In this document: piece by piece, positions 6,992 through 37,408 of the stretch | Layout of the letters: each line of letters begins with the position of its first letter | Position numbering within the stretch: position 1 is the first letter of the stretch | Assembly (NCBI GenBank): GCA_001820215.1 | Contig: MHOW01000011.1 | Coordinates: 13,579-52,255 of the forward strand | DNA length: 38,677 bases | Origin: Candidatus Staskawiczbacteria bacterium RIFCSPLOWO2_01_FULL_33_13 | Lineage (GTDB): Bacteria > Patescibacteriota > Minisyncoccia > Minisyncoccales > Staskawiczbacteraceae | Reading direction: 5' to 3' | The notes under the pieces: model-generated | What the model was told of the DNA's origin: nothing | Database searches by the model: none | The model's input: the letters and a program-made list of their open reading frames with translations, nothing else | Position numbers and translations under genes: made by a program

Positions 6992-7957
6992 ATGATTTAT
7001 AAAAGAAATCCTTATTTAGACAAGATTTTTAAGCATTTAACTATACTTGCTTCCATTGTAAAGAGTAAAAATCAATTGTCTTTAAATGATGATAGTAAAT
7101 CCAGCGAATCTTTTTTTAAAGATTTACTGAATATAATTTTTGGTTATAATTTTATTAATTTAAATAATAAAGAAAAAAATTATGCTGGCATAGATCTAGG
7201 AGATGCTTCTGAAAGAATATGCGTTCAGATCACATCAAGTAATACTTCAAAAAAAATACAGGAAACACTCGATATATCTGATAAACATAAAAGATATGAG
7301 GAATACGACGAAATTACTATCCTAATTATAGGATATAAACAAAAATACAAGAAAATTTTCACTTCGAAATTTAAAAAATGCAATGTTTGGGATATCAGGG
7401 ATGTGTTTCAAAAAATTGATTCATTACCTACGCCTCATATAGAAAAAATTATAGAATATCTCGATAGAGAACTAGACACTGTTATTAAAATAAATCCGAT
7501 TGATTTATTAGATAAGGACATTTCAATTATTATTGATATATTATTTAATTATCTTTCGGAAAAAGGCTTTAAAGGTAAGGTAGGGTCACAACAACAGTAT
7601 AAATTAGTCAGAAGGCAAGACGGATTTATAGATAAAAAAAATAATTTAAACAATGTTAATGAGCTACTTTTTAATAGTGAGATTCGCCCTAGTTTAAAAT
7701 ACGATAAAAAAATCGAGGATTTTCTCAAAAATCCCATTAATGTTAATTTTAAGAAAAAATATTTTGCTATCACTGAAATATTTCAAAAAATATATTCTAA
7801 TAATACTGATGAATTTAACGGTATGGCATCTTTATTCGGCTTCATTTTCGACGAGGTAATAACCTATGAAAATAGAGAAAATCTTGACGATAGCAAGTTA
7901 TTAATATTATTACATAATATGTATTTTAATTGTGATTTAGGTAATAATCCTAAATAA
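6992..7957 (+). CDS. SMEK-domain-like protein; candidate effector component of an ABC-3C-type system
   Basis: The N-terminal ~165 aa follow the SMEK-domain pattern as I remember it: ...SLNDDSKSSESFFKDLLNIIFGYNFINLNNKEKNYAGIDLGDASERICVQITSSNTSKKIQETL...ITILIIGYKQ. The C-terminal ~155 aa are unassignable. The stop lies 1 nt before the next start. Confidence 0.6.
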   Translation: MIYKRNPYLDKIFKHLTILASIVKSKNQLSLNDDSKSSESFFKDLLNIIFGYNFINLNNKEKNYAGIDLGDASERICVQITSSNTSKKIQETLDISDKHKRYEEYDEITILIIGYKQKYKKIFTSKFKKCNVWDIRDVFQKIDSLPTPHIEKIIEYLDRELDTVIKINPIDLLDKDISIIIDILFNYLSEKGFKGKVGSQQQYKLVRRQDGFIDKKNNLNNVNELLFNSEIRPSLKYDKKIEDFLKNPINVNFKKKYFAITEIFQKIYSNNTDEFNGMASLFGFIFDEVITYENRENLDDSKLLILLHNMYFNCDLGNNPK

Positions 7958-7958
7958 A

Positions 7959-8201
7959 ATGTTAAAACCGACAAAATATACAGATCTAAATATTTCCCTG
8001 ATTGCAGTAGTTTCTGAACTTCTTAAGATTTTTAAAGTAAGCAATAGCATTACTTATTCAGAATTACTAAATAAAGTAATACAGAAAAAAGGAATTATTG
8101 CTAAGAATATTTTTTTGCCAGCACTGAGTTTTTTATTTCTTATGGATAAAATTACATACTACGAAAAAAAGGACATAATTGAATATAAAAATGAGAATTA
8201 G
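7959..8201 (+). CDS. 80-aa middle-component-like protein of an ABC-3C-type system
   Basis: Small helical protein (..ISLIAVVSELLKIFK...ITYSELLNKV.....FLPALSFLFLMDKITY), which fits a winged-helix-like shape. Its stop (8199-8201) overlaps the ATG at 8191 of the ATPase gene. Confidence 0.5.
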   Translation: MLKPTKYTDLNISLIAVVSELLKIFKVSNSITYSELLNKVIQKKGIIAKNIFLPALSFLFLMDKITYYEKKDIIEYKNEN

Positions 8202-9957
8202 CAAAATATATTCAAATAATGAATTAATGACACCGATTAGATTTAATCGTGGATTTAATGTGATATATGGAGATATTGAGAACAAGAACGGAGAAAAGAA
8301 TGAACATAATTTAGGGAAATCATCACTAGTTTATCTTATTGATTTTCTTTTATTGAAAAAGGTAACGCAAGAACATTTTTTATCAAGACATAAAGAGCAG
8401 TTTGTCGGCTGGACTTTTTATATAGAAATTGAATTAGGAGAAAATCATTTTTTAACCATCAAAAGATCTGTAAATAATCCAACTCGCATATCTTTCAAGA
8501 AGCATGATACTAAAGATCAAGATTTCTCTTCGTTAGAATTGTGGGACCATGAAGATACTAAATTATACGCAAGGAATGGTATGGATTCACAAGATATATT
8601 AGATAAATATTTAAATTTTAGTATCCTTAAAAATTACTCATATAGACATTTTTTACCATATGCATTGAGGGATCAATATGGCTACGAAGATGTATTTGAA
8701 ATGAGTCAGTTTCAAGGCCTCGACATTAATTGGAAACCATATTTATTTGCTTTATTGGGATATAAAGAGGAGGATGTTATCAACAAATATCTTGTCTATG
8801 ATCAGATTAACAGCTACAGAAAGATGTTGAATATTATTTTGGGGAATAAAAAAATTAATACTAGAGATTCTTATAATCTAAAGGAGGCGATTAATGAAAA
8901 AGAGAACGAAAAGAAAAGCATAATTGAACAAGCCGATAAATTTGATTTTTATTTAAGAGAGAAAAAACTTAGCAAAGAATTAGTTAACGATATAGAAATT
9001 AAAATTAGTGAGTTAAATTCAGAAAGATATAGGCTCGACTATGAAATAAATAAAATAAAAGAGTCGCTAGATAATAATGTTAGTTTTGACATTAAAGAAG
9101 TTGAAGAAATATTTGCGCAAACAGAGATATACTTTCCTGACAAATTAAAAAAGAGCTATCAGGATCTTATAGATTTTAATATCAGTATATCGAATGAAAG
9201 GGCGAGTTATCTAAGAGAAGATCTTGAGGTTAGCCTTGAATATGTAAAAGATATTGAGAGCAAATTAGAAAAATTTAATAAAGAAAAGGAGAGCATGTTA
9301 TCATTTTTGCGGAATACTGATACATTCTCAAAATATAAATCATTTCAAGGGGAGATAATAAAATTAGATGAAGAAATAAATAAATATAAAGCAAAATTGG
9401 ATTCTTTAGGAACCGCAGAGAACTATGAAAAGAAAATAGAGTTATTAAAAATTGATTCCAAGGAACTTGCTTTAAAAATAAAAAAAGTCATCGACGAAGG
9501 AAATGATGTGTTTGATTCAATCAAGAATTTGTTCAAAGATATATTTAAAAAGACCATGGGCTATACGGCATTATTGGTCGTAAAACCTAATAAAGAAGGC
9601 AATCCGCATTTTGAGACAACTACACTTGATAATAAAGATATAGATAAGCTAACCGGACAGGGAGAGGGATACACGGCGACAAAGATTCAGTGCGCCTCTT
9701 TTGTATTAGCTATATTAGCTACATATGCCAAGGAAAGATTTATTAAATTTGCTTATCATGATGGTCTAGTGGAGAGTTGGGGAAATGATCCTAAGATAAA
9801 CTTTTTTGAAGAGATAGCAAATCTATGTAATAGATACGACATTCAATATATAATTAGTGTTATAAAAAGCGATATTCCTGATAAGTTTAAATTCAGAGAC
9901 GATGAAATAATCGCAAGAGTATCACAAGAAAAGCCTCTTTTCGGTTTTAAATTTTAA
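8179..9957 (+). CDS. Coiled-coil ABC/SMC-like ATPase (DUF2326-like); ATPase component of an ABC-3C-type system
   Basis: Degenerate Walker A NLGKSS (aa 44-49, nt 8308-8325). Long K/E-rich coiled coil (aa ~230-450). C-terminal signature-like GQGEGY (aa 493-498) and Walker-B-like FAYHDG (aa 524-529, nt 9748-9765). The track start at 8179 is TTG; the ATG at 8191 (MRISKIYSNN) is the more likely start. Confidence 0.7.
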   Translation: MNIKMRISKIYSNNELMTPIRFNRGFNVIYGDIENKNGEKNEHNLGKSSLVYLIDFLLLKKVTQEHFLSRHKEQFVGWTFYIEIELGENHFLTIKRSVNNPTRISFKKHDTKDQDFSSLELWDHEDTKLYARNGMDSQDILDKYLNFSILKNYSYRHFLPYALRDQYGYEDVFEMSQFQGLDINWKPYLFALLGYKEEDVINKYLVYDQINSYRKMLNIILGNKKINTRDSYNLKEAINEKENEKKSIIEQADKFDFYLREKKLSKELVNDIEIKISELNSERYRLDYEINKIKESLDNNVSFDIKEVEEIFAQTEIYFPDKLKKSYQDLIDFNISISNERASYLREDLEVSLEYVKDIESKLEKFNKEKESMLSFLRNTDTFSKYKSFQGEIIKLDEEINKYKAKLDSLGTAENYEKKIELLKIDSKELALKIKKVIDEGNDVFDSIKNLFKDIFKKTMGYTALLVVKPNKEGNPHFETTTLDNKDIDKLTGQGEGYTATKIQCASFVLAILATYAKERFIKFAYHDGLVESWGNDPKINFFEEIANLCNRYDIQYIISVIKSDIPDKFKFRDDEIIARVSQEKPLFGFKF

Positions 9958-11243: not shown

Positions 11244-11246
11244 CCC

Positions 11247-11633: not shown

Positions 11634-11639
11634 TGATGG

Positions 11640-12879: not shown

Positions 12880-14604
12880 ATGGAAAAACAAAAAAATAAA
12901 ATCAATCACACTCTTTATGCGAGAAAATCAAGCGAGGAAGAAGATAGGCAAGTCCTTTCAATCGATTCTCAGATAAATGAAGACAAGAAAATTGCATCAA
13001 GTAACGGTGTGATTGTGCCGGATGATGCTATACGCAAGGAATCTTTTTCAGCAAAAACAGAATATGCTCGGCCTGTTTTTGAATCAATGATAAAAGATAT
13101 AGAAGCAGGAAGGGTTCAGGGAATTATTGCATGGCATCCAAACAGATTATCGAGAAATGCCATTGATGCAGCTCGGCTGATATCTTTATTTGACAAAGGA
13201 AAGCTTAAGCAGATAATAACGGCGCAGCAGGTATTCAGAAATACTCCCTCTGATAAATTCTTTTTTAATTTGCTTACGAGTCAGGCAAAAATGGAAAACG
13301 ACAATAAAAGTCTTGATGTGAAAAGAGGATTGAGGAGGAAATACGAAATGGGCTATCCCCCGTGTCTATCAAAGGTGGGTTATATGAATGATGAATCGGG
13401 TAGAAAGGGCGATAAAAAATGGAAGAACGACACGGATCGCCAACCCTTGATAAAGAAAGTTTTTGAGGAATTTTTAACAGCAAGATATTCGGTCAGAAAA
13501 ATTAAAGAGTATGCGGATAAAAATGTATGCTTAAGGACAATCCAACGCAATAAAGAGGGCGGAAAACCTCTTAATGAGTCTGCGATGTATAACTTGCTAA
13601 CAGACCCATTTTATGCCGGATTCTTTTACAGAAACGATGAAAATGAGGAAAAGAAAAGATACGAAGCACACGAGTCTCTGAATAGATTGATTACGGAAGG
13701 ACAATACTGGCAAGTCCAGAGAATTTTAGGTAAAAAAGGAAAACCGTGTCCGACCAAGTATCTTGAATCATTTCCCTATAAAAGATTTATGAAGTGTGGA
13801 TCTTGTGGTGGTTCGGTTACGGCGGAACAGAAACATCAACTGATATGTTCGGAATGTAAATTTAAGTTTTCCTATCCCAACAAAACAGCTTGTCCGAAAT
13901 GTAAAGTGAAAATCGAAAAAATGGAAAATCCAAAATACCTATACTATATTTTTTACCATTGTATAAAAGGCAAGGATCCGAATTGCAAAGAGGGTGCGCT
14001 GCAAGAAATAAAAATCGATGAATATGTAGCAGATTATTTTGCAAAAAACATTAAAATTTCAACTGCATTGAAAGAGTGGTGTCTTAAAAACTTTACTGAA
14101 ATTATCGAAAATGAAAAACAAAATGAATTGGAGGTAAGAATTTCCAAGGAGAGAGAATTGGAGCAGAAAAAGAAAGACTACGACAATCTTGTAAAGATGG
14201 GCTCCAGAGGGCTTATAAGTGATGAGGAAGCGTTTTTAAGGCTTGAGTCGAGTGCCTCAGCGGATATTAAAAAGGCTGAGCAATCATTATCTCGAGCTGG
14301 AGGATCTCCAACAGAGATGATAGATGAGGCAAAGAAAATCTTTAATTTTGCCGTAGGAGTGGCAGAAATTTTCAGAAATGGAGTGTTTAAAGATAAAGAT
14401 GAGGCTCTCACAGAAATTTGTTCGAACCTAACTTTAAAAGGCAAAAAAGTGGAAATTTACGAACAAAACTCATACCTTGCTTTAAAAAAGTGCATCGTGG
14501 AGTCAAAACTGAAAAATAGCAACTTCGAACCTGCGATTTACGGAGAGAATAATGAAAAAACAGAGTCTTTTGACTCTGTTCGTTCAACTTGGCTCCCCGG
14601 GTAG
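12880..14604 (+). CDS. Large serine recombinase (integrase type)
   Basis: Resolvase-type N-terminus with the catalytic-Ser context YARKSSEEEDRQVLSIDSQ, plus AWHPNRLSRN. Recombinase domain. Zn-ribbon Cys clusters (CGSCGG...CSEC...CPKC). C-terminal coiled coil. AGGAG lies 13 nt upstream of the ATG. The last 15 nt overlap the tRNA-Asn 3' end. Confidence 0.9.
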   Translation: MEKQKNKINHTLYARKSSEEEDRQVLSIDSQINEDKKIASSNGVIVPDDAIRKESFSAKTEYARPVFESMIKDIEAGRVQGIIAWHPNRLSRNAIDAARLISLFDKGKLKQIITAQQVFRNTPSDKFFFNLLTSQAKMENDNKSLDVKRGLRRKYEMGYPPCLSKVGYMNDESGRKGDKKWKNDTDRQPLIKKVFEEFLTARYSVRKIKEYADKNVCLRTIQRNKEGGKPLNESAMYNLLTDPFYAGFFYRNDENEEKKRYEAHESLNRLITEGQYWQVQRILGKKGKPCPTKYLESFPYKRFMKCGSCGGSVTAEQKHQLICSECKFKFSYPNKTACPKCKVKIEKMENPKYLYYIFYHCIKGKDPNCKEGALQEIKIDEYVADYFAKNIKISTALKEWCLKNFTEIIENEKQNELEVRISKERELEQKKKDYDNLVKMGSRGLISDEEAFLRLESSASADIKKAEQSLSRAGGSPTEMIDEAKKIFNFAVGVAEIFRNGVFKDKDEALTEICSNLTLKGKKVEIYEQNSYLALKKCIVESKLKNSNFEPAIYGENNEKTESFDSVRSTWLPG

Positions 14605-22324: not shown

Positions 22325-25300
22325 ATGGGTATGGCTTATAAATCATTCAAAAAAACAATTAAGGCACTACAAAAAACAGTAGTGTTGTTTTTAGTTTTTG
22401 TATTTTTTATAACTCCCTTGGCTCCAGTGTTTGCTGAGGTTTTAGATAGTACTCCTGCTTTTGAAACTACAGAAGCTTCAACCGAAATTTTGGTTTCATC
22501 AGACATTTTTCCAACAGTTGACCCGGTGCCTTCGGATACTTCGTCTGATGTTGCGGTTTTTTCAGATGCTTCTAGTCCAAGTCCCGTTGATTCAACTATT
22601 CCTGGCGACAAAACCGACCCAACCAGTACTTCTTACAATAAAAATTCTACATCTTCGTCCATGGGTGCTAGCACAACTAGTTCGTCGTCTTCATCTGAAG
22701 TTTCAGATTCATTTAGTACAATAAAACAGTCTATTCCAGAACCTGATCCCGCAACCGGCGCTTTGATATATAGCTATCCAATTACAGTACCCCTTGGGCG
22801 CAATGGTATGCAGCCCGATTTAAAATTACACTACAATAGTCAAAGTGCCGCTCAGGACGGTATTTTTGGTTATGGTTTTGAGGCTAATATTCCTAAAATA
22901 GAAAGAATAAATAAACATGGCGTCAATAAGCTATATGATTATAAAGATTTTAGATCTTCTTTATCAGGAGAACTTGTAAATATATCTTCCGAAGATTATG
23001 TGGCAAAAATAGAAAATGGTTCATTTTTAAAATACAAGCTAATTGATGGCGTATGGATTATTACCGACAAGAAAGGCACTTTATATAAGTTTGGACGCTT
23101 TGATTCTTCAAAAATTTATGATTTTTCAAACACAGATAAAATTTATGCGTGGTATTTAGATGAGGTTGTAGATACCAACGGCAACTCAATAAAATATTTT
23201 TATACAAAAAATGTTGCTGATAATTTTTTATATCCCGATAAGATAGTCTATACTGGTAGTGGGGCAGAGGCAGGAATTTTTTCAGTTGAATTTAAAAAAG
23301 AATTTAGACCAGATTCTTATACAAAAAATAGTACTGGTTTTACTCAAAAAATTAATGAGCGCATTAAGTCCATAGAAACATATGTCTTTGGTACATTAAG
23401 TAGAAAATATGATTTGATTTACAAAATAGGGGATAATGGCAAGCGCTCTATGCTTGAAAAAATTATTGAAAGCGGAACGGATGGGTTTGGTGTTACTACT
23501 ACATTACCATCTTTTAATTTTGCTTATACTAAAGGAGATGTTGGTTTAGTAAATACGCCTTCTATAAATTATCCAATGGTTGTTGAAGATGGAGCATCTG
23601 TGCCATTTTCATTTGCTGACAACGCAGTTAAGATTATAGACATTAATGGTGATGGATTAAAAGATATTGTAAAATCCAGCATCATTATAAAAGATGGGGT
23701 TGATCGGCCAGTCTTTTGGGTTTTAAAAAATAATGGGTCAGGATGGGTGGTGGACAATTCTTACCTTCAGCCGATGTACTCTTTTGTTAATAGTTTGGGA
23801 AATACCGTTAACGAATATTTTACTTTTTCAAACTCAATTGATGTTGGCGATTGGAATGGAGATGGTAAAGATGACTTAATTAAATTTTGGGTTGAGATTA
23901 ATGGCGCAAAAGATAAACAACACGCTGTAGTATTGCTAAATACTGGTACAGCCTGGGTGCAAAATACTAATATAACAACAGATATACCCTACACTCAAGC
24001 CGGAAGTCCAATATATGTATACTCAGGTTCCTATGGTTCACAAAATCATTTTATTGATTTAAATGGCGATGGATTGATTGACTATATTAATGCTTCAAAT
24101 TATCAACAAAACGGCATAAATTATCCAAGTTTTGCAGTTTTATATAACGATGGCGAAGATTTAAAGTGGGATGCAACAATGCCTCAACCATATGCAAAGC
24201 CAAATCTTGCTTCAGCCAGTGAGCCACTTGCATTAAGTAATAGTACAAAAATACTAGATATTAATGGAGATGGCCTTGTTGATTTTATTTTTGCAAATAA
24301 TTACCAAATTAATGGCATTGATAATCCATCTTTTTGGGTTTTGATAAATAATGGGCATGGGTGGGATCAGGATTTAACTATTACTCAGGCGCAATATATC
24401 TCTCTTGATGTGAATGATAATGCAAAAACAAATTATTTTACCAGCACCCAGGGTTGGCGTGTGGTTGATATTAATGAAGATAGTCTGCCAGATTTTATTA
24501 TGTTTGGAACAATTGATACTGGCGCAAATACCTATAAAAAAAGGAAAACGGTTTTAGTAAACACTGGCAAGGGATGGATTCAAGATGACAGCTTGATTAC
24601 TATTGGAGATTATACTTATGTAGATTCCAATGGCACGCAAACCAATTATCCTAACTCTGGCGCAGGCGATATTGTATTACTTGATATTAACGGTGACGGA
24701 CTCTTTGATATTACTCGTCCGGGTTCTTACTATCAATCAGGAGTTTTTCGGGCAAGCAACTGGACACTTTTAAATAATGGCAAAATTGCCAACACTTTGG
24801 CAAAAATTGAACTGCCCCAGGGCGGCTCTTATGATTTTTCTTATAAAATGACAAGCGCCTATAAAGATGCTTCGGGAAACTTACTGAATAATAATTTACC
24901 ATCAGCACATAATACAATTAAAAAGATAATTCAAAATGATAGCAATGGCGCCGCCTCCACAAAAGATTATGAGTATTCTGGAGGGCGCTTTTTTTACGAA
25001 AACTCTTTTAATAAGCGTTTTGCAGGATTTGAAAAAATCACCAAAATAAATCCTGTAGGAGAAAAATTTATAACATATTATCATCAGGGAAACACCACAA
25101 ATTCAACTCAGGGAGAATTTGACGACCAAGAATCTAAAATAGGAATGATTTATAGGTCTGAATTATACGATAACTCTAATAATATTTACTCTAAAAATAT
25201 ACAAAAATGGGATAGTGCTGACTTAGGCGGTGGTGTAAAATTTGTGAAATTGGCTCAAACGGTAAATTTTATACATGATGGCGAGGCTACTCATCGCGAT

Positions 25301-28300
25301 ACCACAGAAAGCTACACTTATGATACTTATGGCAACACCACTCAAAAAATTGAATATGGCGAAGTTTTGGGAAATGATGATGGCGCATTTTTAGATATTG
25401 GAAGTGATAAATTTATAACTAATTATTCTTATGCTTCCAATGGGGAATATATTGTTGGTTTTCCTTCACAGGTAACAGTAAAAAATCAAAGTGGAGAAAA
25501 AGTAAAAGAAAGTAAATTTTACTATGACCTAGAGGCCATTGGTAGTGTAACAAAAGGAAATCTTACAAAACAAGAAGATTGGAAAAATGGCGTCGTCTAT
25601 ATTAACAACCAAAAAACCTACAACAACTATGGTTTGGTGACCGCGTCAATTGACCCAAGTGGAAATGCAACGCAATATGGTTACAATTCTTATAATCTTT
25701 ATCTAGCAATATTAACCAATGCTTTAAATCAGATTACACAATATATTTATGATTACTCTTCGGGACAAGTAACACAAAAGACAGATATTAACGAAAGAGT
25801 ATTTCAACACACCTACGATGGCGTGGGTAGGTTAATAGAAGAAAAACAGCCAGATTTGGCCGTGCCATCAATCTTAGTTACTAAGGCCACATACGCTTAT
25901 ACAGATACTCCAAATGCAGTAAGTGTTAAAAAATCAATTTACCTGGATGCATCAAATTCTGTTGACAGCTATATCTATTTTGATGGGCTTGCTAGAAAAA
26001 TTCAAGAACGCCAAGAGGCTGAAGGAATAAATTTTACAGTAAAAGATTATGTGTATAATAATGTTGGACAACTTGCAAAAGAATCTTTACCTTATTTTTC
26101 AACTGGTTTAAATAAAACTTCACCAACGAATGATTCTACACTTTACATAAATTATAGTTACGATGCTATGGGTCGCATGGTTACTTTAACCAATGCAGTT
26201 GGCAATACTTCAAATACTTACAACAATTGGAAATTTACCACAACGGATGCAAATGGAAAATCTAAAGATTTATACAAAGATGCGTATGGTAATGTACTAC
26301 AAGTTGATGAGCATAATGCTGGCAACACTTATAGTACTTTTTATAGCTATAATTATTTGGGAAATGTAATAAAAATTACTGATGCGTTAAATAATGTGCG
26401 CACCTTTACTTACAATGGGCTTGGCCAAAGATTAATTGCACAAGACCTTCATGCGCCAACAGATACCTCGTTTGGTATTTGGAATTATACTTATGACGAT
26501 TCGGGAAATATAATCCAAGTTGTAAATCCTAATAATCAAATAATTAATTACACCCATGATGATTTACATAGGCAGTTAACCGAGGATTATTTGGGACAGG
26601 AAGGAATAGAAGTAACCAATTCTTACGATAATGGCATTGATGGCAAGGGTCGGCTTACAGGCGTTGTATCTTCAAGTGTAATTCAGAATAATACTTACAA
26701 CGCTTTGGGATTTTTAAAAACTGAATCAAAAATTATAGATTCTGTAACCTACCCAACAACCTATGATTATGACAGGCAGGGGAGTCAAACTATGATTACA
26801 AATCCCGATAATTCACAAGTAAAAAATATTTACAATAGCGCAGGATTGCTTGATAAAACTCAAAGAAAGGAAAGTTCTGATGCAAACTTTATTGATGTAG
26901 TTTCAAATTTTGACTATTCGCCAATAGGACAAATTACCATCCAACAAAACGCAAACGGAACTGTCACAACAAACATCTACGACGCCACCAAACTTTATAG
27001 ATTAATTAATAAAAAAACTACAACTTCGGCTACTCCACCAGCACCACCTTCGCCTCCCGGACCGGTTTCATATTCATCATCTGATATTAATAGTTTTGTA
27101 GATATTAAAATTTCACAAAATCGTCTTAGCGATTTAATAACAAATATTAAAAATGGTGTTTTGGGTTTTGCTTCTAATTTTACCTCCGCTGTAAAATCAT
27201 TCTTTACTGTTCCTGTTGCTATGGCTGTCAGTCCTCCCATCATCTCCACATTCATAAGAGACCCTACCAGCATATTATACGACCAATCATCCAGATTATC
27301 ATGGACTCTTTCTGGCGGAGCTCCCACCAGTTTATCAATTGATAAATCTGTAGGCTCGGTGCTTGGCACTTCAGCCGTAAGAGTTTATCACATTCTTGAT
27401 ACTACTACTTACACTTTAACCGCTAAAAACTCTGCAGGTACTGTCACTAAAAAAGTCACCGTTACCGTTAATCACAAGCCTCCTATTATTTCAACTTTCA
27501 AGGCAGACACCACCACCATAAATTATGGAGACTCTGTCAGATTATCCTGGACACTTTCAGGCGAAGCTCCAACCAGTTTGTCAATTGATAACGGTGTAGG
27601 TTCGGTTTTAGGTATCTCGGCAATACGAGTCTACAATGTCACAAAAACCACAACCTACATTTTAACAGCCAAAAATTCGTACGGCACCGTCACCAAATCC
27701 GTGAAAGTCACTGTTAATCCCCAGGCTCCAGTGATTAATACATTTAGCGCAAGTCCGATTGCAATTACTTCGGGGCAAAGCGTGACATTGGCCTGGACAC
27801 TTTCTGGCGGGGTCCCCACCACACTTTCAATCAACAACAGTGTCGGCTCGGTTTTAGGAATGTCATCAAAATCCGTTTCACCAACGATAACCACCACCTA
27901 TATTATGACAGCAAAAAATATTTCGGGGACTTCATACAACGCTGTGTTGGTCACCGTCAATCCTGCCGCGCCAATTATTTCTACATTTGTAGCAAGTCCC
28001 ACTACTATTAATGCTGGTCAAGCTGCTATTTTATCATGGACGCTTTCTGGCGGAGCTCCCACCAGCTTGTCAATTAATAATTCGGTAGGGTCAGTGCTTG
28101 GTATTTCGTCCTTAAGGATTTATAATATTCTTAATACAACCACTTACACTCTTACTGCAAGCAACACTACTGGTTTTGTAACTAAGTCGGTCACCGTTAT
28201 TGTAACTTTGCCCCAAGCCGAAGCTCCAACCATCAGCCCAAATGGAGGAACATTTACTAGCGCCCAAACCATCACCCTTGAATCGGCCACCACCGGCGCC

Positions 28301-30034
28301 GATATTTATTATGCGACAGATGATTCAACTCCAACGGCCGCTTCAACAAAATATACTACTCCATTTACGCTTGAGCAAACTGCCACCGTAAAAGCTATTG
28401 CCCAAAAATCTGGTTACACCGATTCAACAATTTCATCGGCAATTTTTACTATTAATATTCCACCAACTTCAATCTGGTCTGGCCAAATTATTCAAGATGT
28501 AAGTTATACCTACGACGCCGTTGGTAATATTACAAAAATTGTAGATAATTCAAATACCAACACCAAAAAAGTTTCAACCTACACCTACGACGATTTGTAT
28601 CGAGTTACCAACGCCACTGTTATCGGCAGTGATGATTCAACTAAAAACTATCAGGAAAGTTATGTGTACGATGCCATCGGAAACATTGTAACCAAAACAG
28701 AAACTATTGGCGCTGGCACCCCAACAACCTCCGTTTATTCATACTCAAATGTTGACTACGCCAATCCGCATGCGGTTACCAGTATTGGTGCTACTGCTTT
28801 TTCGTATGACAACAATGGAAATATGTTGAGTTCAACTGGTGGATTTACCAATGTTTGGGATTACAGTAATCGCTTAACTTCTGCAATCAAGGGAACAATT
28901 ACAAATACTTACGGGTATGACGCCGGAGGTCAGAGGATAAAAGTTGCAAGTCCGACAGTTACCACAATCTACCCCACTAAGTTTTATAACACTGACGGAA
29001 CGAATATCGTAAAACACATTTTTGCCGGCTCTCAAGACTTATCCACCGTGCAAGACACCGGAGCAAGTGCTAAAATATATACAAATCACAGTGATTTATT
29101 GAATTCATCGAGTGTGATGACCGATTCCGCCGGCGTCCCCGCTGAAGTGATGGACTATATGCCATTTGGCGCGATCAGGATAGATGAAAAAGTAGGTTCG
29201 TTTAACGAGCAAAGAAAATACATCGGACAAGAATTTGATGCCGAAACAGGATTAAATTATTTAAACGCGAGGTATTACAACAGCGCACTTGGTAGATTTA
29301 TTTCCCAAGACCCGATGTTTTGGAATTTATCAAATGAATTACTCACTGATCCGCAGCAACAAAATTCATATTCATACGCCAGAAATAATCCGATAGTGGG
29401 AAGTGACCCCACTGGGCTACTGGTTGAATTAATGTCCAGACAGGTTTTTGATGCTAAAGGTCGCGATGTCGGAATACACACATTCTTTAAAGTAACGCCA
29501 GATTATCCAAATGATATTCGTATAGATGGGCTCGCAAGCGGAACAAAAGAGTTTACATTCGGCGCATATCCGAGCAGCTCTGATGGGTGGACTAACAAAT
29601 TATCAAAACAAATTGGCACTACAGAGAATAGCCAAGATAAACAATGGGCATTTGAGGGCGGTAAAATAATAAATCAAACCATTGTAAGCCTACCAGAAGG
29701 GGTTAAAAACGATACTGACTTTATTAATAATATGGGAAAAGCATATAATAATATGGATTTATCGGAAATGAATTATTTTTGGCATGGAAATGTTTCTGGA
29801 TTATATGATGGCAATTCCAATAATTTTACCTATACATTAGGTGTAAAAAGTGGGGCAAAGAGTCAAATGGATTCCTTTGATCCGGGCCCAGGTATAGCTA
29901 AAATAGTCGGTGAATATGGTTATGGCAAGACTTTACCCACCACAAGTATATATCACACAGCGAGGGACATGGCATATTATATGGGGAATAAAATTGGTCA
30001 ATTCGTTTCTTCATTAAAAGCCAAAAAGAAATAA
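22325..30034 (+). CDS. Giant secreted SpvB / FG-GAP / RHS-YD repeat polymorphic toxin (TcB-TcC-fusion-like), 2569 aa
   Basis: Signal peptide (VVLFLVFVFFITPLAPVFA) and an S/T/P linker. SpvB-like YSYPITVPLGRNGMQPDLKLHYNS (aa ~149-172). FG-GAP/VCBS-like DINGDGLxD repeats (aa ~439-795). Many YD repeats (YTYDTYGNTTQ, YIYDYSSGQVTQKTD, HTYDGVGRLIEE). RHS core YIGQEFDAETGLNYLNARYYNSALGRFISQDP. NPIVGSDPTGL motif (DPTGL is aa 2361-2365, nt 29405-29419). Confidence 0.95.
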   Translation: MGMAYKSFKKTIKALQKTVVLFLVFVFFITPLAPVFAEVLDSTPAFETTEASTEILVSSDIFPTVDPVPSDTSSDVAVFSDASSPSPVDSTIPGDKTDPTSTSYNKNSTSSSMGASTTSSSSSSEVSDSFSTIKQSIPEPDPATGALIYSYPITVPLGRNGMQPDLKLHYNSQSAAQDGIFGYGFEANIPKIERINKHGVNKLYDYKDFRSSLSGELVNISSEDYVAKIENGSFLKYKLIDGVWIITDKKGTLYKFGRFDSSKIYDFSNTDKIYAWYLDEVVDTNGNSIKYFYTKNVADNFLYPDKIVYTGSGAEAGIFSVEFKKEFRPDSYTKNSTGFTQKINERIKSIETYVFGTLSRKYDLIYKIGDNGKRSMLEKIIESGTDGFGVTTTLPSFNFAYTKGDVGLVNTPSINYPMVVEDGASVPFSFADNAVKIIDINGDGLKDIVKSSIIIKDGVDRPVFWVLKNNGSGWVVDNSYLQPMYSFVNSLGNTVNEYFTFSNSIDVGDWNGDGKDDLIKFWVEINGAKDKQHAVVLLNTGTAWVQNTNITTDIPYTQAGSPIYVYSGSYGSQNHFIDLNGDGLIDYINASNYQQNGINYPSFAVLYNDGEDLKWDATMPQPYAKPNLASASEPLALSNSTKILDINGDGLVDFIFANNYQINGIDNPSFWVLINNGHGWDQDLTITQAQYISLDVNDNAKTNYFTSTQGWRVVDINEDSLPDFIMFGTIDTGANTYKKRKTVLVNTGKGWIQDDSLITIGDYTYVDSNGTQTNYPNSGAGDIVLLDINGDGLFDITRPGSYYQSGVFRASNWTLLNNGKIANTLAKIELPQGGSYDFSYKMTSAYKDASGNLLNNNLPSAHNTIKKIIQNDSNGAASTKDYEYSGGRFFYENSFNKRFAGFEKITKINPVGEKFITYYHQGNTTNSTQGEFDDQESKIGMIYRSELYDNSNNIYSKNIQKWDSADLGGGVKFVKLAQTVNFIHDGEATHRDTTESYTYDTYGNTTQKIEYGEVLGNDDGAFLDIGSDKFITNYSYASNGEYIVGFPSQVTVKNQSGEKVKESKFYYDLEAIGSVTKGNLTKQEDWKNGVVYINNQKTYNNYGLVTASIDPSGNATQYGYNSYNLYLAILTNALNQITQYIYDYSSGQVTQKTDINERVFQHTYDGVGRLIEEKQPDLAVPSILVTKATYAYTDTPNAVSVKKSIYLDASNSVDSYIYFDGLARKIQERQEAEGINFTVKDYVYNNVGQLAKESLPYFSTGLNKTSPTNDSTLYINYSYDAMGRMVTLTNAVGNTSNTYNNWKFTTTDANGKSKDLYKDAYGNVLQVDEHNAGNTYSTFYSYNYLGNVIKITDALNNVRTFTYNGLGQRLIAQDLHAPTDTSFGIWNYTYDDSGNIIQVVNPNNQIINYTHDDLHRQLTEDYLGQEGIEVTNSYDNGIDGKGRLTGVVSSSVIQNNTYNALGFLKTESKIIDSVTYPTTYDYDRQGSQTMITNPDNSQVKNIYNSAGLLDKTQRKESSDANFIDVVSNFDYSPIGQITIQQNANGTVTTNIYDATKLYRLINKKTTTSATPPAPPSPPGPVSYSSSDINSFVDIKISQNRLSDLITNIKNGVLGFASNFTSAVKSFFTVPVAMAVSPPIISTFIRDPTSILYDQSSRLSWTLSGGAPTSLSIDKSVGSVLGTSAVRVYHILDTTTYTLTAKNSAGTVTKKVTVTVNHKPPIISTFKADTTTINYGDSVRLSWTLSGEAPTSLSIDNGVGSVLGISAIRVYNVTKTTTYILTAKNSYGTVTKSVKVTVNPQAPVINTFSASPIAITSGQSVTLAWTLSGGVPTTLSINNSVGSVLGMSSKSVSPTITTTYIMTAKNISGTSYNAVLVTVNPAAPIISTFVASPTTINAGQAAILSWTLSGGAPTSLSINNSVGSVLGISSLRIYNILNTTTYTLTASNTTGFVTKSVTVIVTLPQAEAPTISPNGGTFTSAQTITLESATTGADIYYATDDSTPTAASTKYTTPFTLEQTATVKAIAQKSGYTDSTISSAIFTINIPPTSIWSGQIIQDVSYTYDAVGNITKIVDNSNTNTKKVSTYTYDDLYRVTNATVIGSDDSTKNYQESYVYDAIGNIVTKTETIGAGTPTTSVYSYSNVDYANPHAVTSIGATAFSYDNNGNMLSSTGGFTNVWDYSNRLTSAIKGTITNTYGYDAGGQRIKVASPTVTTIYPTKFYNTDGTNIVKHIFAGSQDLSTVQDTGASAKIYTNHSDLLNSSSVMTDSAGVPAEVMDYMPFGAIRIDEKVGSFNEQRKYIGQEFDAETGLNYLNARYYNSALGRFISQDPMFWNLSNELLTDPQQQNSYSYARNNPIVGSDPTGLLVELMSRQVFDAKGRDVGIHTFFKVTPDYPNDIRIDGLASGTKEFTFGAYPSSSDGWTNKLSKQIGTTENSQDKQWAFEGGKIINQTIVSLPEGVKNDTDFINNMGKAYNNMDLSEMNYFWHGNVSGLYDGNSNNFTYTLGVKSGAKSQMDSFDPGPGIAKIVGEYGYGKTLPTTSIYHTARDMAYYMGNKIGQFVSSLKAKKK
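27233..28213 (+). repeat. Four tandem ~82-aa (246-nt) Ig-like repeats inside the RHS ORF
   Basis: Units start at nt 27233, 27479, 27725 and 27968. Consensus: (P/A)PIISTF.A.PTTI..G....LSWTLSGGAPTSLSI(D/N)N.VGSVLG.S....Y....TTTY.LTAKN..GTVTK.V.VTVN. Confidence 0.85.
29420..30031 (+). other. C-terminal variable toxin domain of the RHS protein (204 aa), family unassigned
   Basis: It begins right after DPTGL. It contains GIHTFF (His at nt 29477-29479), KEFTFGAYP (from nt 29546) and GNSNNFTYTL (Ser at nt 29816-29818). It has no Cys. Confidence 0.6.
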
Positions 30035-30039
30035 AAGTT

Positions 30040-30333
30040 ATGAAAAACATATTTATCAGTATATTGAAGCAAATAGGGAAATTATTTATCGGGATATTTT
30101 TAGGAATTACCATAGAGCTTTTTACTGGGATTGGTTTATCTTATTTAGTGGAGAAATTCTATACAGTCCATTTTGACCCAGGTCCTTTTGTAGTAGAATA
30201 CCCATTATTAATAATATTATTACTAGGAATATATCTTGTGTTCTGGAAAAAACAATATGCACTAACTATGGGTATGTTTCTTGGTGCCATTATTTTTATT
30301 TTTTCATTGGGAATTGTCCTTACTGGGACTTAA
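30040..30333 (+). CDS. 97-aa three-TM protein; candidate cognate immunity protein
   Basis: It starts 5 nt after the RHS stop, in the canonical position of RHS immunity genes. Confidence 0.5.
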   Translation: MKNIFISILKQIGKLFIGIFLGITIELFTGIGLSYLVEKFYTVHFDPGPFVVEYPLLIILLLGIYLVFWKKQYALTMGMFLGAIIFIFSLGIVLTGT

Positions 30334-30357
30334 ATTTGGTTTTCAGACGAGTAAATT

Positions 30358-30642
30358 ATGAAAAAATCATTTATTATTGGCATCGGATTAATTTCAGGTT
30401 TTATTTTTGAGCTTTTGAATCTTTCGGAATTTTATAGTATTTTTTTCCCGAAAAACTATGTAAACGCCAACGCTTCGCTTTTTCTTTTCATAGGTCCATT
30501 GTTGTTTATAATATCAAGTATTATTTTTACGATATTTATAAAAAAATACAATTGGATGTGGCTAATGGTCGGTTTTTTCGGCGGTTTCTCATTATGTTTT
30601 ATGGGTTTTATGATGTTATTAACTCTTGGTGGAGAAGTTTAG
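30358..30642 (+). CDS. 94-aa three-TM protein, paralog-like to 30040-30333; second immunity candidate
   Basis: Same topology and shared pattern LL.I....I...F.KK.........F.G......G...L..G. Confidence 0.45.
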   Translation: MKKSFIIGIGLISGFIFELLNLSEFYSIFFPKNYVNANASLFLFIGPLLFIISSIIFTIFIKKYNWMWLMVGFFGGFSLCFMGFMMLLTLGGEV

Positions 30643-30670: not shown

Positions 30671-30838
30671 ATGATAAAGAAAATAATAATTAAAGATGCA
30701 TATAGGACCATTTCGTTAGATTTTTCTCTAGAATTAGAGAAAATGACAATTATCACTGGAAAAAATAATTCTGGGAAGACAAATTTTATTACGAGTAATG
30801 GGGACAGCCACCATTTTATAAAAAATATGATATACTAA
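30671..30838 (+). pseudogene. N-terminal stub of an AAA_15/OLD-type ATPase, truncated just after Walker A
   Basis: MIKKIIIKDAYRTISLDFSLELEKMTIITGKNNSGKTNFI resembles the typical N-terminus of OLD/Abi-type ATPases. The reading frame then runs into REP copy A (30796-30815) and terminates. Confidence 0.55.
30796..30815 (+). repeat. REP-like hairpin copy A
   Basis: TAATGGGGACAGCCACCATT folds as AATGG-GG-ACAG-CC-A-CCATT. Confidence 0.7.
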
Positions 30839-30842
30839 ATAC

Positions 30843-30917
30843 ATGCCAAGAATATCAAGAAGAGTCGGCGTTGGCCAAGAAGTGTATCATATCTTAAACA
30901 GTGAGAATAGAGAATAG
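30843..30917 (+). pseudogene. Duplicated, diverged 5' stub of the RAYT gene
   Basis: MPRISRRVGVGQEVYHILNSENRE* compares with the intact MPRTARVDIGQEVYHILNRANAR. Both lie 42-48 nt downstream of a REP copy. Confidence 0.6.
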
Positions 30918-30939
30918 GGGAGAATAGGGACGGAGAATA

Positions 30940-30955
30940 GGGACAGCCACCATTT
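30940..30955 (+). repeat. REP-like copy B (partial), preceded by an (AGAATAGGG)n micro-tandem at 30903-30940
   Basis: GGGACAGCCACCATTT. Confidence 0.65.
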
Positions 30956-30987
30956 ATTGTTCTAGGTGATTGTGATATGATATCTGT

Positions 30988-31665
30988 ATGCCAAGAACAG
31001 CCAGAGTTGATATTGGACAAGAAGTTTACCATATTTTAAACAGGGCTAATGCCCGTGTGCAGATTTTTGATAATACAAAAGACTACTTAGATTTCGAAAA
31101 AATATTACAGGAGGCAGTGGAGCGCTTTGCAATGAGACTTTTAACTTATTGTGTTATGCCTAACCACTGGCATTTGGTAGTCTATCCAAAACAAGATAAA
31201 GATTTGGCTAAATTTATGGGATGGCTTACCAATACCCATACCCGTCGTTGGCACGCAGCTAAAAAAACCACTGGTCAGGGACATTTATACCAAGGAAGAT
31301 ACAAATCATTTTTGTGTCAGCAGGACGATCATTTTATTACATTAATGCAGTATGTAGAACGCAATCCTAAGAAAGCTGGGCTTTGTAATTTTGCGCAAGA
31401 TTGGAAGTGGGGCAGTATTTGGCGACGTGAGAATGGAAACAAAGAACAGCAGAAAATACTTTCAGAATGGCCAGTTGATATACCGAAGGGTTATTTAGAA
31501 TTAGTGAATCGTGCATCTGATAAAAAAATTGCTGAAATGGAAAAAATAATTGATGTAACTATCGAAAAAGGGAATCCATTTGGAGATAGTGAATGGGTAA
31601 AAAAAATTGTTAAAAAATTCGGACTTGAGCAGACGTTACGAACTGTAGGGAGGCCAAAGAAGTGA
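30988..31665 (+). CDS. rayT: REP-associated tyrosine transposase (RAYT; IS200/IS605-like Y1 HUH enzyme)
   Basis: HUH motif PNHWHLVV. Catalytic-Tyr helix MQYVERNPKKAG. N-terminal YHILNRAN typical of the family. Confidence 0.88.
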   Translation: MPRTARVDIGQEVYHILNRANARVQIFDNTKDYLDFEKILQEAVERFAMRLLTYCVMPNHWHLVVYPKQDKDLAKFMGWLTNTHTRRWHAAKKTTGQGHLYQGRYKSFLCQQDDHFITLMQYVERNPKKAGLCNFAQDWKWGSIWRRENGNKEQQKILSEWPVDIPKGYLELVNRASDKKIAEMEKIIDVTIEKGNPFGDSEWVKKIVKKFGLEQTLRTVGRPKK

Positions 31666-31667
31666 GT

Positions 31668-31687
31668 AATGGTGGCTGTCCCCATTA
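31668..31687 (-). repeat. REP-like hairpin copy C (inverted)
   Basis: AATGGTGGCTGTCCCCATTA. It starts 3 nt after the RAYT stop. Confidence 0.7.
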
Positions 31688-31764
31688 CCCCAAAAAAGGG
31701 GTAAAATACACTTCACTCTTGACAGGTATTGATTGTTTTTTGGGAATGTGCTACTATTAATATA

Positions 31765-31914
31765 ATGGAGAAAATGAAAGAAAATATACTGTTTTTTACG
31801 CATAAAAATTCAAGAAATGGAATTTTAATGTCCTATGTGTTTGTTAGTGTCCCTGATAAGTTTAGAGAGAAGAGCTTCTCTAGTGTTAAGAATTTTTTCA
31901 ACAATTTAATTTGA
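31765..31914 (+). CDS. Doubtful 49-aa ORF
   Basis: An ATG-started part of the track ORF (MEKMKENILFFTHKNSRNG...). A terminator follows at 31921-31945. Confidence 0.25.
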   Translation: MEKMKENILFFTHKNSRNGILMSYVFVSVPDKFREKSFSSVKNFFNNLI

Positions 31915-31920
31915 AATTTG

Positions 31921-31945
31921 CACCCTTTGATGGGTGTATTTTTTT
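31921..31945 (+). terminator. Intrinsic terminator
   Basis: CACCC-TTTGAT-GGGTG followed by TATTTTTTT. Confidence 0.6.
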
Positions 31946-31955
31946 ACGAAAATAT

Positions 31956-32036
31956 ATGTATTTTGGAGAGCATGTAACGATCGACGGCTATAATGGAGAT
32001 TTTGGAAAATTAAATGACAAAGAGCTTGTAGGGTAA
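31956..32036 (+). pseudogene. 26-aa N-terminal stub of an AdoMet-decarboxylase-like gene, cut at REP copy D
   Basis: MYFGEHVTIDGYNGDFGKLNDKELVG* parallels YGAELLVDLHDCDLVGLVNKEKL of the intact gene at 32480. Confidence 0.45.
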
Positions 32037-32044
32037 ATGGGGTA

Positions 32045-36028: not shown

Positions 36029-37408
36029 ATGTTTGGATTTGGACAACGTAAAAAAATTACTGAAAAGCTCTACCAGCAAAATCTTGAGCTTGCGGTAACA
36101 AACAAAACTCTTTCGCTACTTGAAGAGTTATATCAAAAAAGTACCCTCACTTTGACGCCAGAGGAAATGGCGCAGGAGATTGCCAATGTTATCTGCAAAG
36201 ACTTAAATCTTGAGTTAGCGGGAATACTGATATTTAAGAAAGAAAGCGATTCCCTTGTGCCCCTCGCTTTTTCAAAGTCCGAAAGGCTTGTTAAAACCCT
36301 GCAAAAATTGGGGTTCTTTTTTCGCGACATAACAATTCCAAATATTTCAAAATCAAATTTTCTAAAAAAAGTCGTTTATGAAAAGACGGAAAACATAACA
36401 GATGATCTTTACGAGGTTTTTGGAGATTTAATATTAAAAGATCACTTAAAAGAAGTTAAGTTGCAGTCTCATATTAAGACTATATTAATGTACCCTTTGA
36501 TAAAAAGCGGAGAAGTGCTCGGAGTGCTCATTTTAGCTTTTAATCGCAATTATAATAATTTAAATTCTTTTGAAAAGGCTTCCATAAGAAGCTTTATCAA
36601 CGCAATAGCTCTTTTGCTGGACAAAGCCTATTTATATAAAGACTTGCAGGATTCTTATGAGGTGACAAAAAAGGCGTATGCCCTAGAAAAACAGGCAAAG
36701 AAAGAGATTGAAAAACTGGATAAGTTTAAAGACCAATTTTTGATGACTACCCAGCATAATTTACGAACTCCTTTAACCTCAATGATGGGCTATTCTGATT
36801 TATTGTTAAACGGAACTTTTGGCAAGCAAAATAAAAAAACTACAGAAGTTATTAAAAAATTCCAGACTCTAACACAAGGAATGATAAAAATGGTAAATGA
36901 CTTTTTGGACATGGCGCAATTTGAATTGGGAAAAAGCGTGGTGGTATTAAAACCGGGGGTTGAACTTTTACCTATTTTAGATGAAATAATGGGCGAACTT
37001 GCTTTTAAGTCTGAAACAAAAGGGGTGTATCTTAAATTTCAAAAACCCAAAAAAAATATTTTAATTAACGCGGATAGAGAAAAATTAAAAGCGGCTTTAT
37101 TTAATATTGTTGATAATTCGGTAAAATATACGGTGAAAGGTGGAGTTGATATAAAATTAGAATATAATAGCGGAGTGAAAATTATAGTTTCTGATACTGG
37201 CATAGGTATTTCAGAAGAAAAGATGCACAGTCTTTTTGATAGCATGTTTGAAAGGGGAGATGAAGCTAAAAAAGTATCCACAATAGGTAGTGGAGTGGGG
37301 TTATACTTGTCTAACAAAATTATTAAATTCCACAACGGCAAGCTTTGGGTGGAATCAGGGGGAGAGGGAAAGGGGTCTGTGTTTTATATTGAATTGCCGA
37401 TTAAATAA
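36029..37408 (+). CDS. Cytoplasmic sensor histidine kinase with a GAF-like N-terminal domain
   Basis: H-box QHNLRTPLTSMMGYSDLL. N-box NIVDNSVKYT. G1 DTGIGI. G2 GSGVGLYL. No TM helix and no adjacent response regulator. Confidence 0.9.
   Translation: MFGFGQRKKITEKLYQQNLELAVTNKTLSLLEELYQKSTLTLTPEEMAQEIANVICKDLNLELAGILIFKKESDSLVPLAFSKSERLVKTLQKLGFFFRDITIPNISKSNFLKKVVYEKTENITDDLYEVFGDLILKDHLKEVKLQSHIKTILMYPLIKSGEVLGVLILAFNRNYNNLNSFEKASIRSFINAIALLLDKAYLYKDLQDSYEVTKKAYALEKQAKKEIEKLDKFKDQFLMTTQHNLRTPLTSMMGYSDLLLNGTFGKQNKKTTEVIKKFQTLTQGMIKMVNDFLDMAQFELGKSVVVLKPGVELLPILDEIMGELAFKSETKGVYLKFQKPKKNILINADREKLKAALFNIVDNSVKYTVKGGVDIKLEYNSGVKIIVSDTGIGISEEKMHSLFDSMFERGDEAKKVSTIGSGVGLYLSNKIIKFHNGKLWVESGGEGKGSVFYIELPIK

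Follow-up and report, generated by a model that had tools for sequence, protein, structure and literature searches.

Several families of large toxins built on RHS/YD repeats resemble the locus described here. As set out in the defining part of the 2012 survey, the 'TcdB/TcaC' class of polymorphic toxins combines a signal peptide, an SpvB domain, a propeller, RHS repeats and a variable toxin (Zhang et al. 2012, Biol Direct 7:18, PMC3482391), and natural fusions of TcB with TcC have been published, for example Burkholderia pseudomallei ABA52082.1 (PMC7861908). In Tc toxins the propeller contacts TcA, and the cryo-electron microscopy structure of the mosquito salivary protein SGS1 shows receptor domains, formed by segments inserted in the Rhs/YD sequence, decorating the exterior of the shell (PMC9935623). 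WapA of Bacillus subtilis and Streptococcus suis is a Sec-dependent RHS toxin of contact-dependent inhibition (CDI) in monoderm bacteria (PMC12704120), and a 2487-aa secreted RHS/YD toxin with PA14 and galactose-binding domains and an adjoining immunity gene has been reported from the Saccharibacteria member 'T. rhizospherense' (Starr et al. 2018, PMC6031116). The locus analysed here lies in a 38,677-nucleotide stretch (hereafter the window) of Candidatus Staskawiczbacteria bacterium RIFCSPLOWO2_01_FULL_33_13 (contig MHOW01000011.1, positions 13,579 to 52,255) and encodes a 2569-aa protein, referred to below as the RHS toxin.

By sequence comparison the RHS toxin is a further member of the 'TcdB/TcaC' class as the defining part of the survey describes it, and its architecture is thus already known. 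We consider it probable that the gene and its downstream neighbours form a toxin-immunity operon of this RHS polymorphic-toxin type, in a Staskawiczbacteria-like Parcubacteria/Paceibacteria host, that would work as follows. The protein would be exported by Sec, as its leader suggests, and its SpvB region, six-motif propeller and YD repeats would, by homology, fold into a TcB-TcC-like cocoon. The RHS core would cut after the conserved DPTGL motif, and the 204-aa C-terminal tip would be kept inside the cocoon as a separate chain. Four Ig-like repeats and a CHB_HEX_C domain, carried by an insertion in the shell, would project outward and bind a glycan or protein on the surface of the target cell, replacing recognition by TcA; the basis of this step is the analogy with SGS1 and the lectin/Ig nature of the inserts of relatives. 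No TcA injector would be involved. The tip would be an enzyme with a conserved His and Ser/Cys, possibly a Ser-variant permuted papain-like hydrolase related to DUF3750, and it would act on a membrane, lipid-linked or wall substrate of the target envelope; this is the weakest step of the scheme. Finally, I1 and perhaps I2, small membrane proteins with three predicted helices, would shield the producing cell and its kin. A conserved loop of I1 is predicted to face outward. The role of the whole would be antagonism of competitors or attack on a host cell on which the bacterium depends.

The RHS toxin is encoded by a single plus-strand open reading frame (ORF), 22325..30034, with an ATG start and an AAAGG Shine-Dalgarno-like motif about 8 nt 5' of it. 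A previous sequence-only reading had given the feature as 22325-30642; its start was right, but the ORF stops at 30034, and 30035..30642 contains two small membrane-protein ORFs, which that reading had passed over. The features of the operon, with the evidence for each, are the following:

22325..22435, plus strand: signal peptide, aa 1-37, with a predicted cut after VFA (read from sequence and hydropathy)
22436..22729, plus strand: low-complexity linker rich in S, T, D and P, aa 38-135 (composition)
22730..23614, plus strand: SpvB/TcB-N-terminal-like region, aa ~136-430 (Pfam SpvB)
23615..24814, plus strand: FG-GAP/integrin-like beta-propeller region, aa ~431-830 (six DxNxDGxxD motifs)
24815..27028, plus strand: first part of the YD/RHS repeat shell, aa 831-1568 (RHS_repeat, E=6e-25)
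27029..28480, plus strand: 484-aa shell insertion, aa 1569-2052 (collinear flanks and Pfam domains)
28481..29419, plus strand: last part of the YD shell and RHS-associated core, aa 2053-2365 (TIGR03696)
29420..30034, plus strand: putative C-terminal toxin tip, aa 2366-2569, 204 aa, and stop codon (no Pfam match)
30040..30333, plus strand: immunity candidate I1, 97 aa, three predicted transmembrane (TM) helices (counterparts after the same tip)
30358..30642, plus strand: second immunity candidate I2, 94 aa, 3-TM, distant paralogue-like (weak similarity to the I1 family)

The domain order and the TcB/TcC-like nature proposed by the sequence-only reading were borne out by Pfam, TIGR03696 and Protein Data Bank (PDB) sequence matches. 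Every module that it had named in the 2569-aa ORF was detected (leader, S/T-rich linker, SpvB, propeller, RHS, DPTGL and C-terminal tip), but the insertion at aa 1569-2052 was missing from its list. The N-terminus consists of MGMAYKSFKKTIKALQKTVVLFLVFVFFITPLAPVFA followed by EV after the predicted cut, with a basic K-rich n-region, a hydrophobic core and a small-x-small site (VFA before E), as judged by eye and by hydropathy. Equivalent leaders are present in the homologues P0002, P0003, P0004, P0129 and P0144, and close homologues align from residue 1. The 98 residues of the linker include 28 S, 14 T, 10 D and 8 P. The SpvB domain was detected with PF03534 (E=8e-19), and its region weakly matched residues 25-114 of YenB in the PDB sequence search (E=5e-4). 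Six FG-GAP-type motifs of the form D-x-N-x-D-G-x-x-D start at aa 439, 509, 576, 645, 715 and 785; the FG-GAP_3 score, 23.2 bits, falls just below the 26.9-bit cut-off, which homologues exceed (PF13517/PF01839). Eleven YD-type motifs were counted in the protein, and aa 1276-1514 of the shell match residues 567-792 of the Rhs structure 7q97 by sequence. The Rhs_assc_core model TIGR03696 scored 68 bits over aa 2278-2365, and the core closes with NNPIVGSDPTGL, in which DPTGL (aa 2361-2365) precedes the 204-aa tail. Both Asp positions of the aspartyl autoprotease are present (RFISQDP and SDPTGL), and PDB sequence comparison matched the core region to Rhs 8h8a (898-1151), to the TccC3/YenC2 core (583-690) and to SGS1.

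Two other claims of the sequence-only reading were not borne out. It had regarded the fusion and the Sec signal as unusual relative to Tc toxins; in the part of the 2012 survey that defines the 'TcdB/TcaC' class this is the defining architecture (PMC3482391), and fusions of B with C are published (PMC7861908). It had also proposed display on the cell surface, for which there was no support from an anchor: an LPxTG motif and a second TM segment were both looked for in the RHS toxin and neither was found. Hydropathy marked only aa 11-42 and aa 1626-1644 as strongly hydrophobic. Promoter and terminator scans returned counts near those of shuffled sequence.

A search of 5.8 billion proteins with the RHS toxin gave 391 matches at E<=1e-10. 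The 120 of these that were listed are 1600-3500 aa long and almost all combine SpvB, FG-GAP and RHS (plus TEN_YD-shell). Sources named among them are Parcubacteria, Doudnabacteria, Staskawiczbacteria, Kerfeldbacteria, Nomurabacteria, Ryanbacteria, Vogelbacteria, Uhrbacteria and 'Patescibacteria group', and two of the listed matches are named outside Patescibacteria (Bacteroidales and Alphaproteobacteria). The best genome match of the RHS toxin is a Saccharibacteria metagenome-assembled genome (MAG). A Saccharibacteria origin of the window was rejected on its pyruvate kinase, whose closest named match in a protein search is Ca. Staskawiczbacteria (68%), followed by Paceibacterota; the same kinase had no match among species-representative genomes. 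Proteins that cluster with the RHS toxin also bear the label 'Parcubacteria group bacterium'. P0004 and others are 61-64% identical to the RHS toxin up to the core and then carry unrelated tips. Relatives built on this scaffold bear, as sister tips, Ntox44 (with or without LysM), an M15 D-Ala-D-Ala carboxypeptidase, Tox-REase-9 or a lipase-like alpha/beta-hydrolase. The last of these is the tip of P0004 (aa 1898-2124), read as lipase-like from a GHSHGG motif and sub-threshold matches to alpha/beta-hydrolase, PGAP1 and palmitoyl-thioesterase families, and it is followed by a small 3-TM protein (L017 16388-16666), which suggests that envelope-directed tips with membrane immunity may be common in the lineage.

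The variation of the tips is accompanied by variation of the gene that follows. I1 begins 5 nt past the toxin stop codon and has no Pfam match. Its counterparts, 43-57% identical, lie directly after the same tip at three loci of unrelated context: at L011, which has a full-length toxin, and at L015 and L016, which have short cassettes. At L012 and L014 diverged tips precede diverged 3-TM proteins that are 37% identical to each other, and all the neighbours of this tip that were examined are polytopic membrane proteins. Such co-variation of a tip and a small protein is the signature of a toxin-immunity pair, and I1 (perhaps also I2) is therefore a candidate immunity protein for the tip. I2 shares about 30% identity with the I1 family, and likewise with the TM proteins that follow the L012 and L014 tips; since the E-values lacked composition correction, this similarity is regarded as weak. 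The distribution of K and R in I1 (+3 at the N-terminus and 'KKQY' in loop 2), read by the positive-inside rule, predicts that its conserved FDPGPFVVEYP loop faces outward. Literature searches found no description of 3-TM immunity proteins that track this tip. At L015 (10-2737) an array of two orphan cassettes, each an RHS core with a tip, has a small TM protein after each, and the second pair matches the tip and I1 of the window.

The tip had no match in Pfam at E<=10, the Tox/Ntox families held there included, and none in a PDB sequence search with a profile. P0002 and P0003 bear the same tip at about 50-55% identity, as do four short proteins, and a profile search of 1.84 billion representatives found it in 103 clusters, following an RHS core in those that were read. 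It was also seen on 'mini-RHS' secreted proteins (P0125, P0133, P0134, P0138, P0139, P0155, P0164 and P0169), which are 350-520 aa long, have their own signal peptide and retain only the last part of the shell and the RHS core; a protein of that length is too small for a cocoon. In an alignment of 56 diverse members one His never varies (H25 of the alignment, aa 2385), and an N-[S/C]-N-N-F motif (aa 2497-2501; N137-[S/C]138-N139 of the alignment) is almost as constant, most members having Ser and a minority Cys. These residues are typical of an active site. An AlphaFold2 model built from the 56-sequence alignment (pLDDT 93.3, pTM 0.86) puts the His in strand 2 (21-30) and the Ser/Cys at the N-terminus of helix 138-148. 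The tip thus has the papain-like pattern of a His on a beta-strand and a Cys or Ser at the N-terminus of a later helix, a pattern that is necessary but not sufficient for such an assignment. Three of the 56 members, all of the Cys type, matched DUF3750 below threshold, the two shown having E=0.003 and being collinear over about 100 residues; DUF3750 has been classed as a papain-like family in which Ser replaces Cys (PMC10318531). That the tip is a Ser/Cys-His hydrolase, perhaps permuted and papain-like and related to DUF3750, is offered as a low-confidence lead. An earlier model from seven sequences (pLDDT 76) had no Foldseek match. Literature searches found no description of this tip family, which is absent from Pfam and has no fold match despite the confident model.

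The lack of a recognised toxin fold in the tip fits another explanation, in which the protein is not a weapon and would be a surface receptor or adhesin resembling teneurin or SGS1, with the RHS shell as a scaffold and a tip devoid of toxic activity. Adhesion-type modules are inserted in the shell and the organism is probably host-dependent, as such a role would lead one to expect. However, the tips are polymorphic across relatives and include recognised toxin families, the small protein after the tip co-varies with it as in toxin-immunity pairs, orphan cassettes exist, and the invariant His and conserved N-[S/C]-N are what an active site would typically show. We therefore consider an adhesin quite improbable and retain the reading of a toxin-immunity operon.

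The 484-aa insertion comprises a P-rich and helical lead-in, four Ig-like repeats (aa 1636-1965) of about 82 aa each that are 54-72% identical among themselves, and a CHB_HEX_C/Fn3_assoc domain (aa ~1966-2047); Pfam matched CHB_HEX_C_1 (E=4e-18) and I-set (E=3e-8) within it. A tandem-repeat search at the DNA level did not detect the Ig repeats, as they are too diverged at that level. Of the two flanks of the insertion, residues 1-1568 align collinearly with residues 1-1585, and residues 2053-2378 with residues 1587-1915, of P0004, the closest homologue free of the insert (61% identical), and P0002 and P0003 are likewise collinear with both flanks. Insertion sites were mapped from chained BLAST segments of 119 relatives, with P0004 as the ruler. 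About 40 of the 119 had an insertion of 200-1100 aa at ruler positions 1577-1590, exactly the site of the insertion in the RHS toxin and about 315 aa ahead of the cleavage motif, which makes this the main hotspot; smaller clusters were found at ruler positions ~1700-1725, ~1778, ~225 and ~1246. Literature searches found no description of a family-wide shell hotspot for binding modules. The site was also considered as the natural break between TcB and TcC, and this was rejected, as it maps to about residue 380 of YenC2, inside TcC. At the hotspot P0011 carries a Sortilin/BNR propeller followed by the same type of Ig repeat as the RHS toxin, and inserts of other relatives contain Bact_surface_Ig-like with a glycine-rich domain, CBM_4_9 with Ig_Rha78A_N, Laminin_G_3 with DUF2341, or fn3. 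By their domain matches the inserted shell segments are extracellular binding modules. Since SGS1, the one solved precedent, shows inserted domains on the outside, the insertion in the RHS toxin is by analogy likely to be an outward-facing binding cassette.

The sequence-only reading had worried that the ORF might be an assembly chimera, for example around 27.0-28.5 kb; in that case this segment would have been joined in from another genome. Base composition does change there: the GC content of the stretch is 0.42-0.45, compared with 0.34 elsewhere, the GC skew turns negative, and GC content at third codon positions (GC3) is raised (GC 0.42 and GC3 0.34 in the insertion, 0.34 and 0.25 over the N-terminal 1568 aa). 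However, GC content at second codon positions is 0.545 in the insertion, so that much of the shift comes from an amino-acid composition rich in S, T, P and A. Moreover, the insertion is in frame and cleanly bounded, its flanks are collinear with three close homologues, it stands at the main insertion hotspot of the family, and P0011 has the same type of Ig repeat at the same site. Three further assemblies carry the full-length 2569-aa ORF with 0, 1 and 2 substitutions, none of them within the insertion, which brings the assemblies with an intact ORF to four. The probability of an assembly chimera is accordingly put close to nil. In one public MAG ('Parcubacteria group bacterium') a frameshift near aa 1050 divides the gene into KKP43030.1 (1056 aa, 'Virulence plasmid 65kDa B domain protein') and KKP43029.1 (1524 aa, hypothetical), through either a sequencing error or a pseudogenised allele. 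The highest GC3 of the gene, 0.39, was found in the last shell segment and core (28481-29419), compared with 0.25 over the first 1568 codons. The raised GC3 of the insertion and of the last shell and core fits a 3' portion acquired by recombination, as is usual for RHS genes, and hints that the whole 3' third, beyond the insertion alone, has had a different recombination history.

The absence of TcA, type VI secretion system (T6SS) and type VII secretion system genes from the window, stated by the sequence-only reading, was confirmed by Pfam annotation of the window's genes, the others of which are housekeeping or defence/mobile genes. No TcA-type gene was found in the 22 kb upstream and about 18 kb downstream of the toxin. 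The possibility, raised in the same reading, that one lies just outside the window was not realised on the 3' side: the 10 kb past the 3' end, seen on a contig from another assembly that carries the same genes and whose toxin differs at one residue, contain none. Nor was a TcA-type Pfam domain found beside six related Patescibacteria loci, in flanks of 4-10 kb (less at contig ends), one of these loci being on a 1.09-Mb record. These data bear on a further alternative, an ordinary Tc (ABC) toxin, with the fused BC cocoon docking on a TcA pentamer whose gene lies at another place in the genome. The SpvB region and propeller are homologous to parts of TcB, the propeller being what contacts TcA in Tc toxins (PMC9935623), and the region inspected amounts to about 48 kb around the gene. 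Set against this are the lack of TcA at all the places just named, a Sec leader on the BC protein itself, immunity genes that would point to a bacterial and not an animal target, and binding modules on the shell itself. A TcA-dependent toxin therefore seems very improbable.

Several observations weigh against the probable reading, that of a TcA-independent toxin whose enzymatic tip acts on the envelope from outside. The absence of TcA is local, covering the window, the 10 kb beyond it and the six loci. The pLDDT 93.3 model of the tip matched nothing in Foldseek searches of the PDB, where the best E was 0.69, and of BFVD, where the best (E=0.04) was to uncharacterised proteins. The DUF3750 scores of tip members are 17-19 bits, compared with a cut-off of 25 bits, and hhalign of the tip with sequences taken to be those of DESI2 and PLA2G16 aligned 26 columns at 0.5-2% probability, pairing only the N-S-N-N-F helix with the N-C-x-H-F helix, with Ser on the catalytic Cys. 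The case for homology of I2 with the I1 family depends on alignments that are hydrophobic and biased in composition. Finally, the same scaffold also carries nuclease tips of restriction-endonuclease fold, and next to some relatives lie soluble immunity-like proteins that lack a TM segment; the family must thus possess, in addition, a route across a membrane that the scheme does not provide.

This last point supports an alternative in which the module is the same, but the tip works inside the target cell. A membrane protein of the target would import it after contact, in the manner of WapA and CDI toxins, and the 3-TM proteins would block entry or bind the toxin at the membrane. A sister tip of restriction-endonuclease fold needs cytoplasmic access, and together with the soluble neighbours it implies that some members of the family must enter cells by a route independent of TcA. 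For the tip of the window, in contrast, the neighbours examined are all polytopic membrane proteins, the tip is also borne by short secreted proteins that have no cocoon, and no import-domain-like segment was found between DPTGL and its conserved strand. Import is thus considered unlikely for this tip. Action from outside the cell is plausible, given the occurrence of the tip on the cocoon-less mini-RHS proteins and the several sister tips that are predicted wall enzymes.

Just 3' of the operon, in the region 30797-32063, lies an IS200-like Y1 transposase gene (30988..31665, 225 aa) flanked by inverted copies of the 19-nt motif AATGGGGACAGCCACCATT, with two more copies nearby (four matches, none expected). 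This looks like an arrangement of repetitive extragenic palindromes (REP) with a REP-associated tyrosine transposase (RAYT). A remnant of a second Y1 N-terminus is present at about 30846-30902. At two other Patescibacteria loci, L017 (17039-17713) and L019 (18434-19108), Y1 orthologues of 62-73% identity stand in the same place and on the same strand behind an RHS gene and its small TM ORF, although the RHS proteins there are only 61% and 37% identical to the RHS toxin, and the Y1 gene is possibly linked to the exchange of cassettes at RHS 3' ends. Beyond the 3' end of the window a type IV pilus cluster (PilB-like T2SSE ATPase, PilC-like T2SSF, N_methyl pilin and PilM; L020 11556-20404) begins about 175 nt after a histidine kinase gene (36029..37408). 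A second RHS locus, from a Nomurabacteria genome, also has pilus genes (L019 1-4897) within 10 kb, and this nearness of RHS and pilus genes may be a coincidence. Upstream, positions 6992-14604 form a candidate defence or mobile island in which GC content dips to 0.25-0.30 at 7-10 kb. It contains an ABC-3C-type module, made up of an SMEK_N/CTD12 protein (6992..7957), a small MC8 protein (called in L022) and a DUF2326 protein (8179..9957), followed by a PG_binding_1 protein, two proteins with no Pfam match and a large serine recombinase (12880..14604).

A large part of bacterial diversity falls within Patescibacteria, most of which are thought to live on other cells, and little is known of how they harm or exploit these. 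If toxins of this kind are directed at the host cell, they would contribute to the way in which these episymbionts breach their hosts or feed on them. At this locus a toxin-immunity module of a well-known class takes up 20% of the 38-kb window in a Parcubacteria genome. It bears on whether cocoon toxins can work without an injector, and it does not overturn the current understanding of RHS toxins. A broader proposition is put forward only tentatively, as the chance that it holds in full is low: Patescibacteria would possess a large TcA-independent lineage of self-contained cocoon toxins, in which interchangeable binding modules in fixed loops of the shell (the main hotspot being about 315 aa before the cleavage site) take over target recognition, the cargo in the present case being an undescribed enzyme fold that attacks the envelope of a host or competitor from outside and is countered by a 3-TM immunity protein. 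In practical terms, the tip and I1 are a small, clonable candidate toxin-immunity pair with a confident structure model of the tip, and the shell hotspot, as a natural site for swapping binding domains, may serve the engineering of delivery by Tc/RHS cocoons.

We compared the locus with the known systems element by element. Every element of the 'TcdB/TcaC' class, as given in the defining part of the survey and with the downstream immunity gene included, has its counterpart here: by sequence, the leader is followed by SpvB and the propeller, the tips switch at the cleavage motif, and the downstream immunity candidate tracks the tip. Patescibacteria are not among the phyla in Table 1 of the 2012 survey, no description of shell insertion hotspots was found in the passages of it that were consulted (PMC3482391), and the present tip lies outside the Tox/Ntox families held by Pfam. 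With the BC cocoon of Tc toxins (TcdB2-TccC3, 6H6G; YenB-YenC2, 4IGL) the RHS toxin shares SpvB, the propeller, the RHS shell, the aspartyl-autoproteolysis core and a hypervariable tip; the position of the propeller between SpvB and the RHS repeats is also the same, docking on TcA being the Tc feature. It differs in that there is no TcA nearby, it has its own Sec leader, and its binding modules are on the shell and not on TcA. Tc toxins aimed at animals lack immunity genes, whereas an immunity candidate is present here, and the shell after the insertion site runs 315 aa to the cleavage site, compared with about 680 aa for the whole TcC shell. On two features the RHS toxin therefore falls outside the Tc ABC group: no TcA was found, and an immunity candidate gene is present.

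Like WapA, the RHS toxin has a Sec leader, RHS repeats and core, a polymorphic tip with a putative cognate immunity gene, and no injection machine. To our knowledge WapA lacks SpvB and the propeller, and the tips known for it are nucleases, their immunity proteins being cytoplasmic. The Rhs effectors of the T6SS have N-termini linked to PAAR or VgrG and are fired by that system. They have a similar YD shell and RHS core and gave the best PDB sequence matches (7Q97, 8H8A; also Tse5, 8CP6), but the RHS toxin has a Sec leader, SpvB and a propeller, and no T6SS genes are found at its locus. SGS1, a protein of bacterial origin (PDB 8FJP, PMC9935623), is likewise a single polypeptide with a propeller, an Rhs/YD shell and inserted beta-sandwich receptor domains; it is eukaryotic, has no immunity gene and carries inserts of other kinds at other positions, and its cargo consists of helices predicted to be transmembrane, in contrast to the enzyme-like tip of the RHS toxin. 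The toxin of 'T. rhizospherense', known from one sentence and alike by description, is also a giant secreted RHS protein of a Patescibacteria host, with carbohydrate-binding domains and an adjoining immunity gene, but it belongs to another Patescibacteria class and has other accessory domains. By analogy with these systems, the RHS toxin would work most like a WapA-type toxin, looks most like a fused Tc BC cocoon, and appears to be decorated like SGS1.

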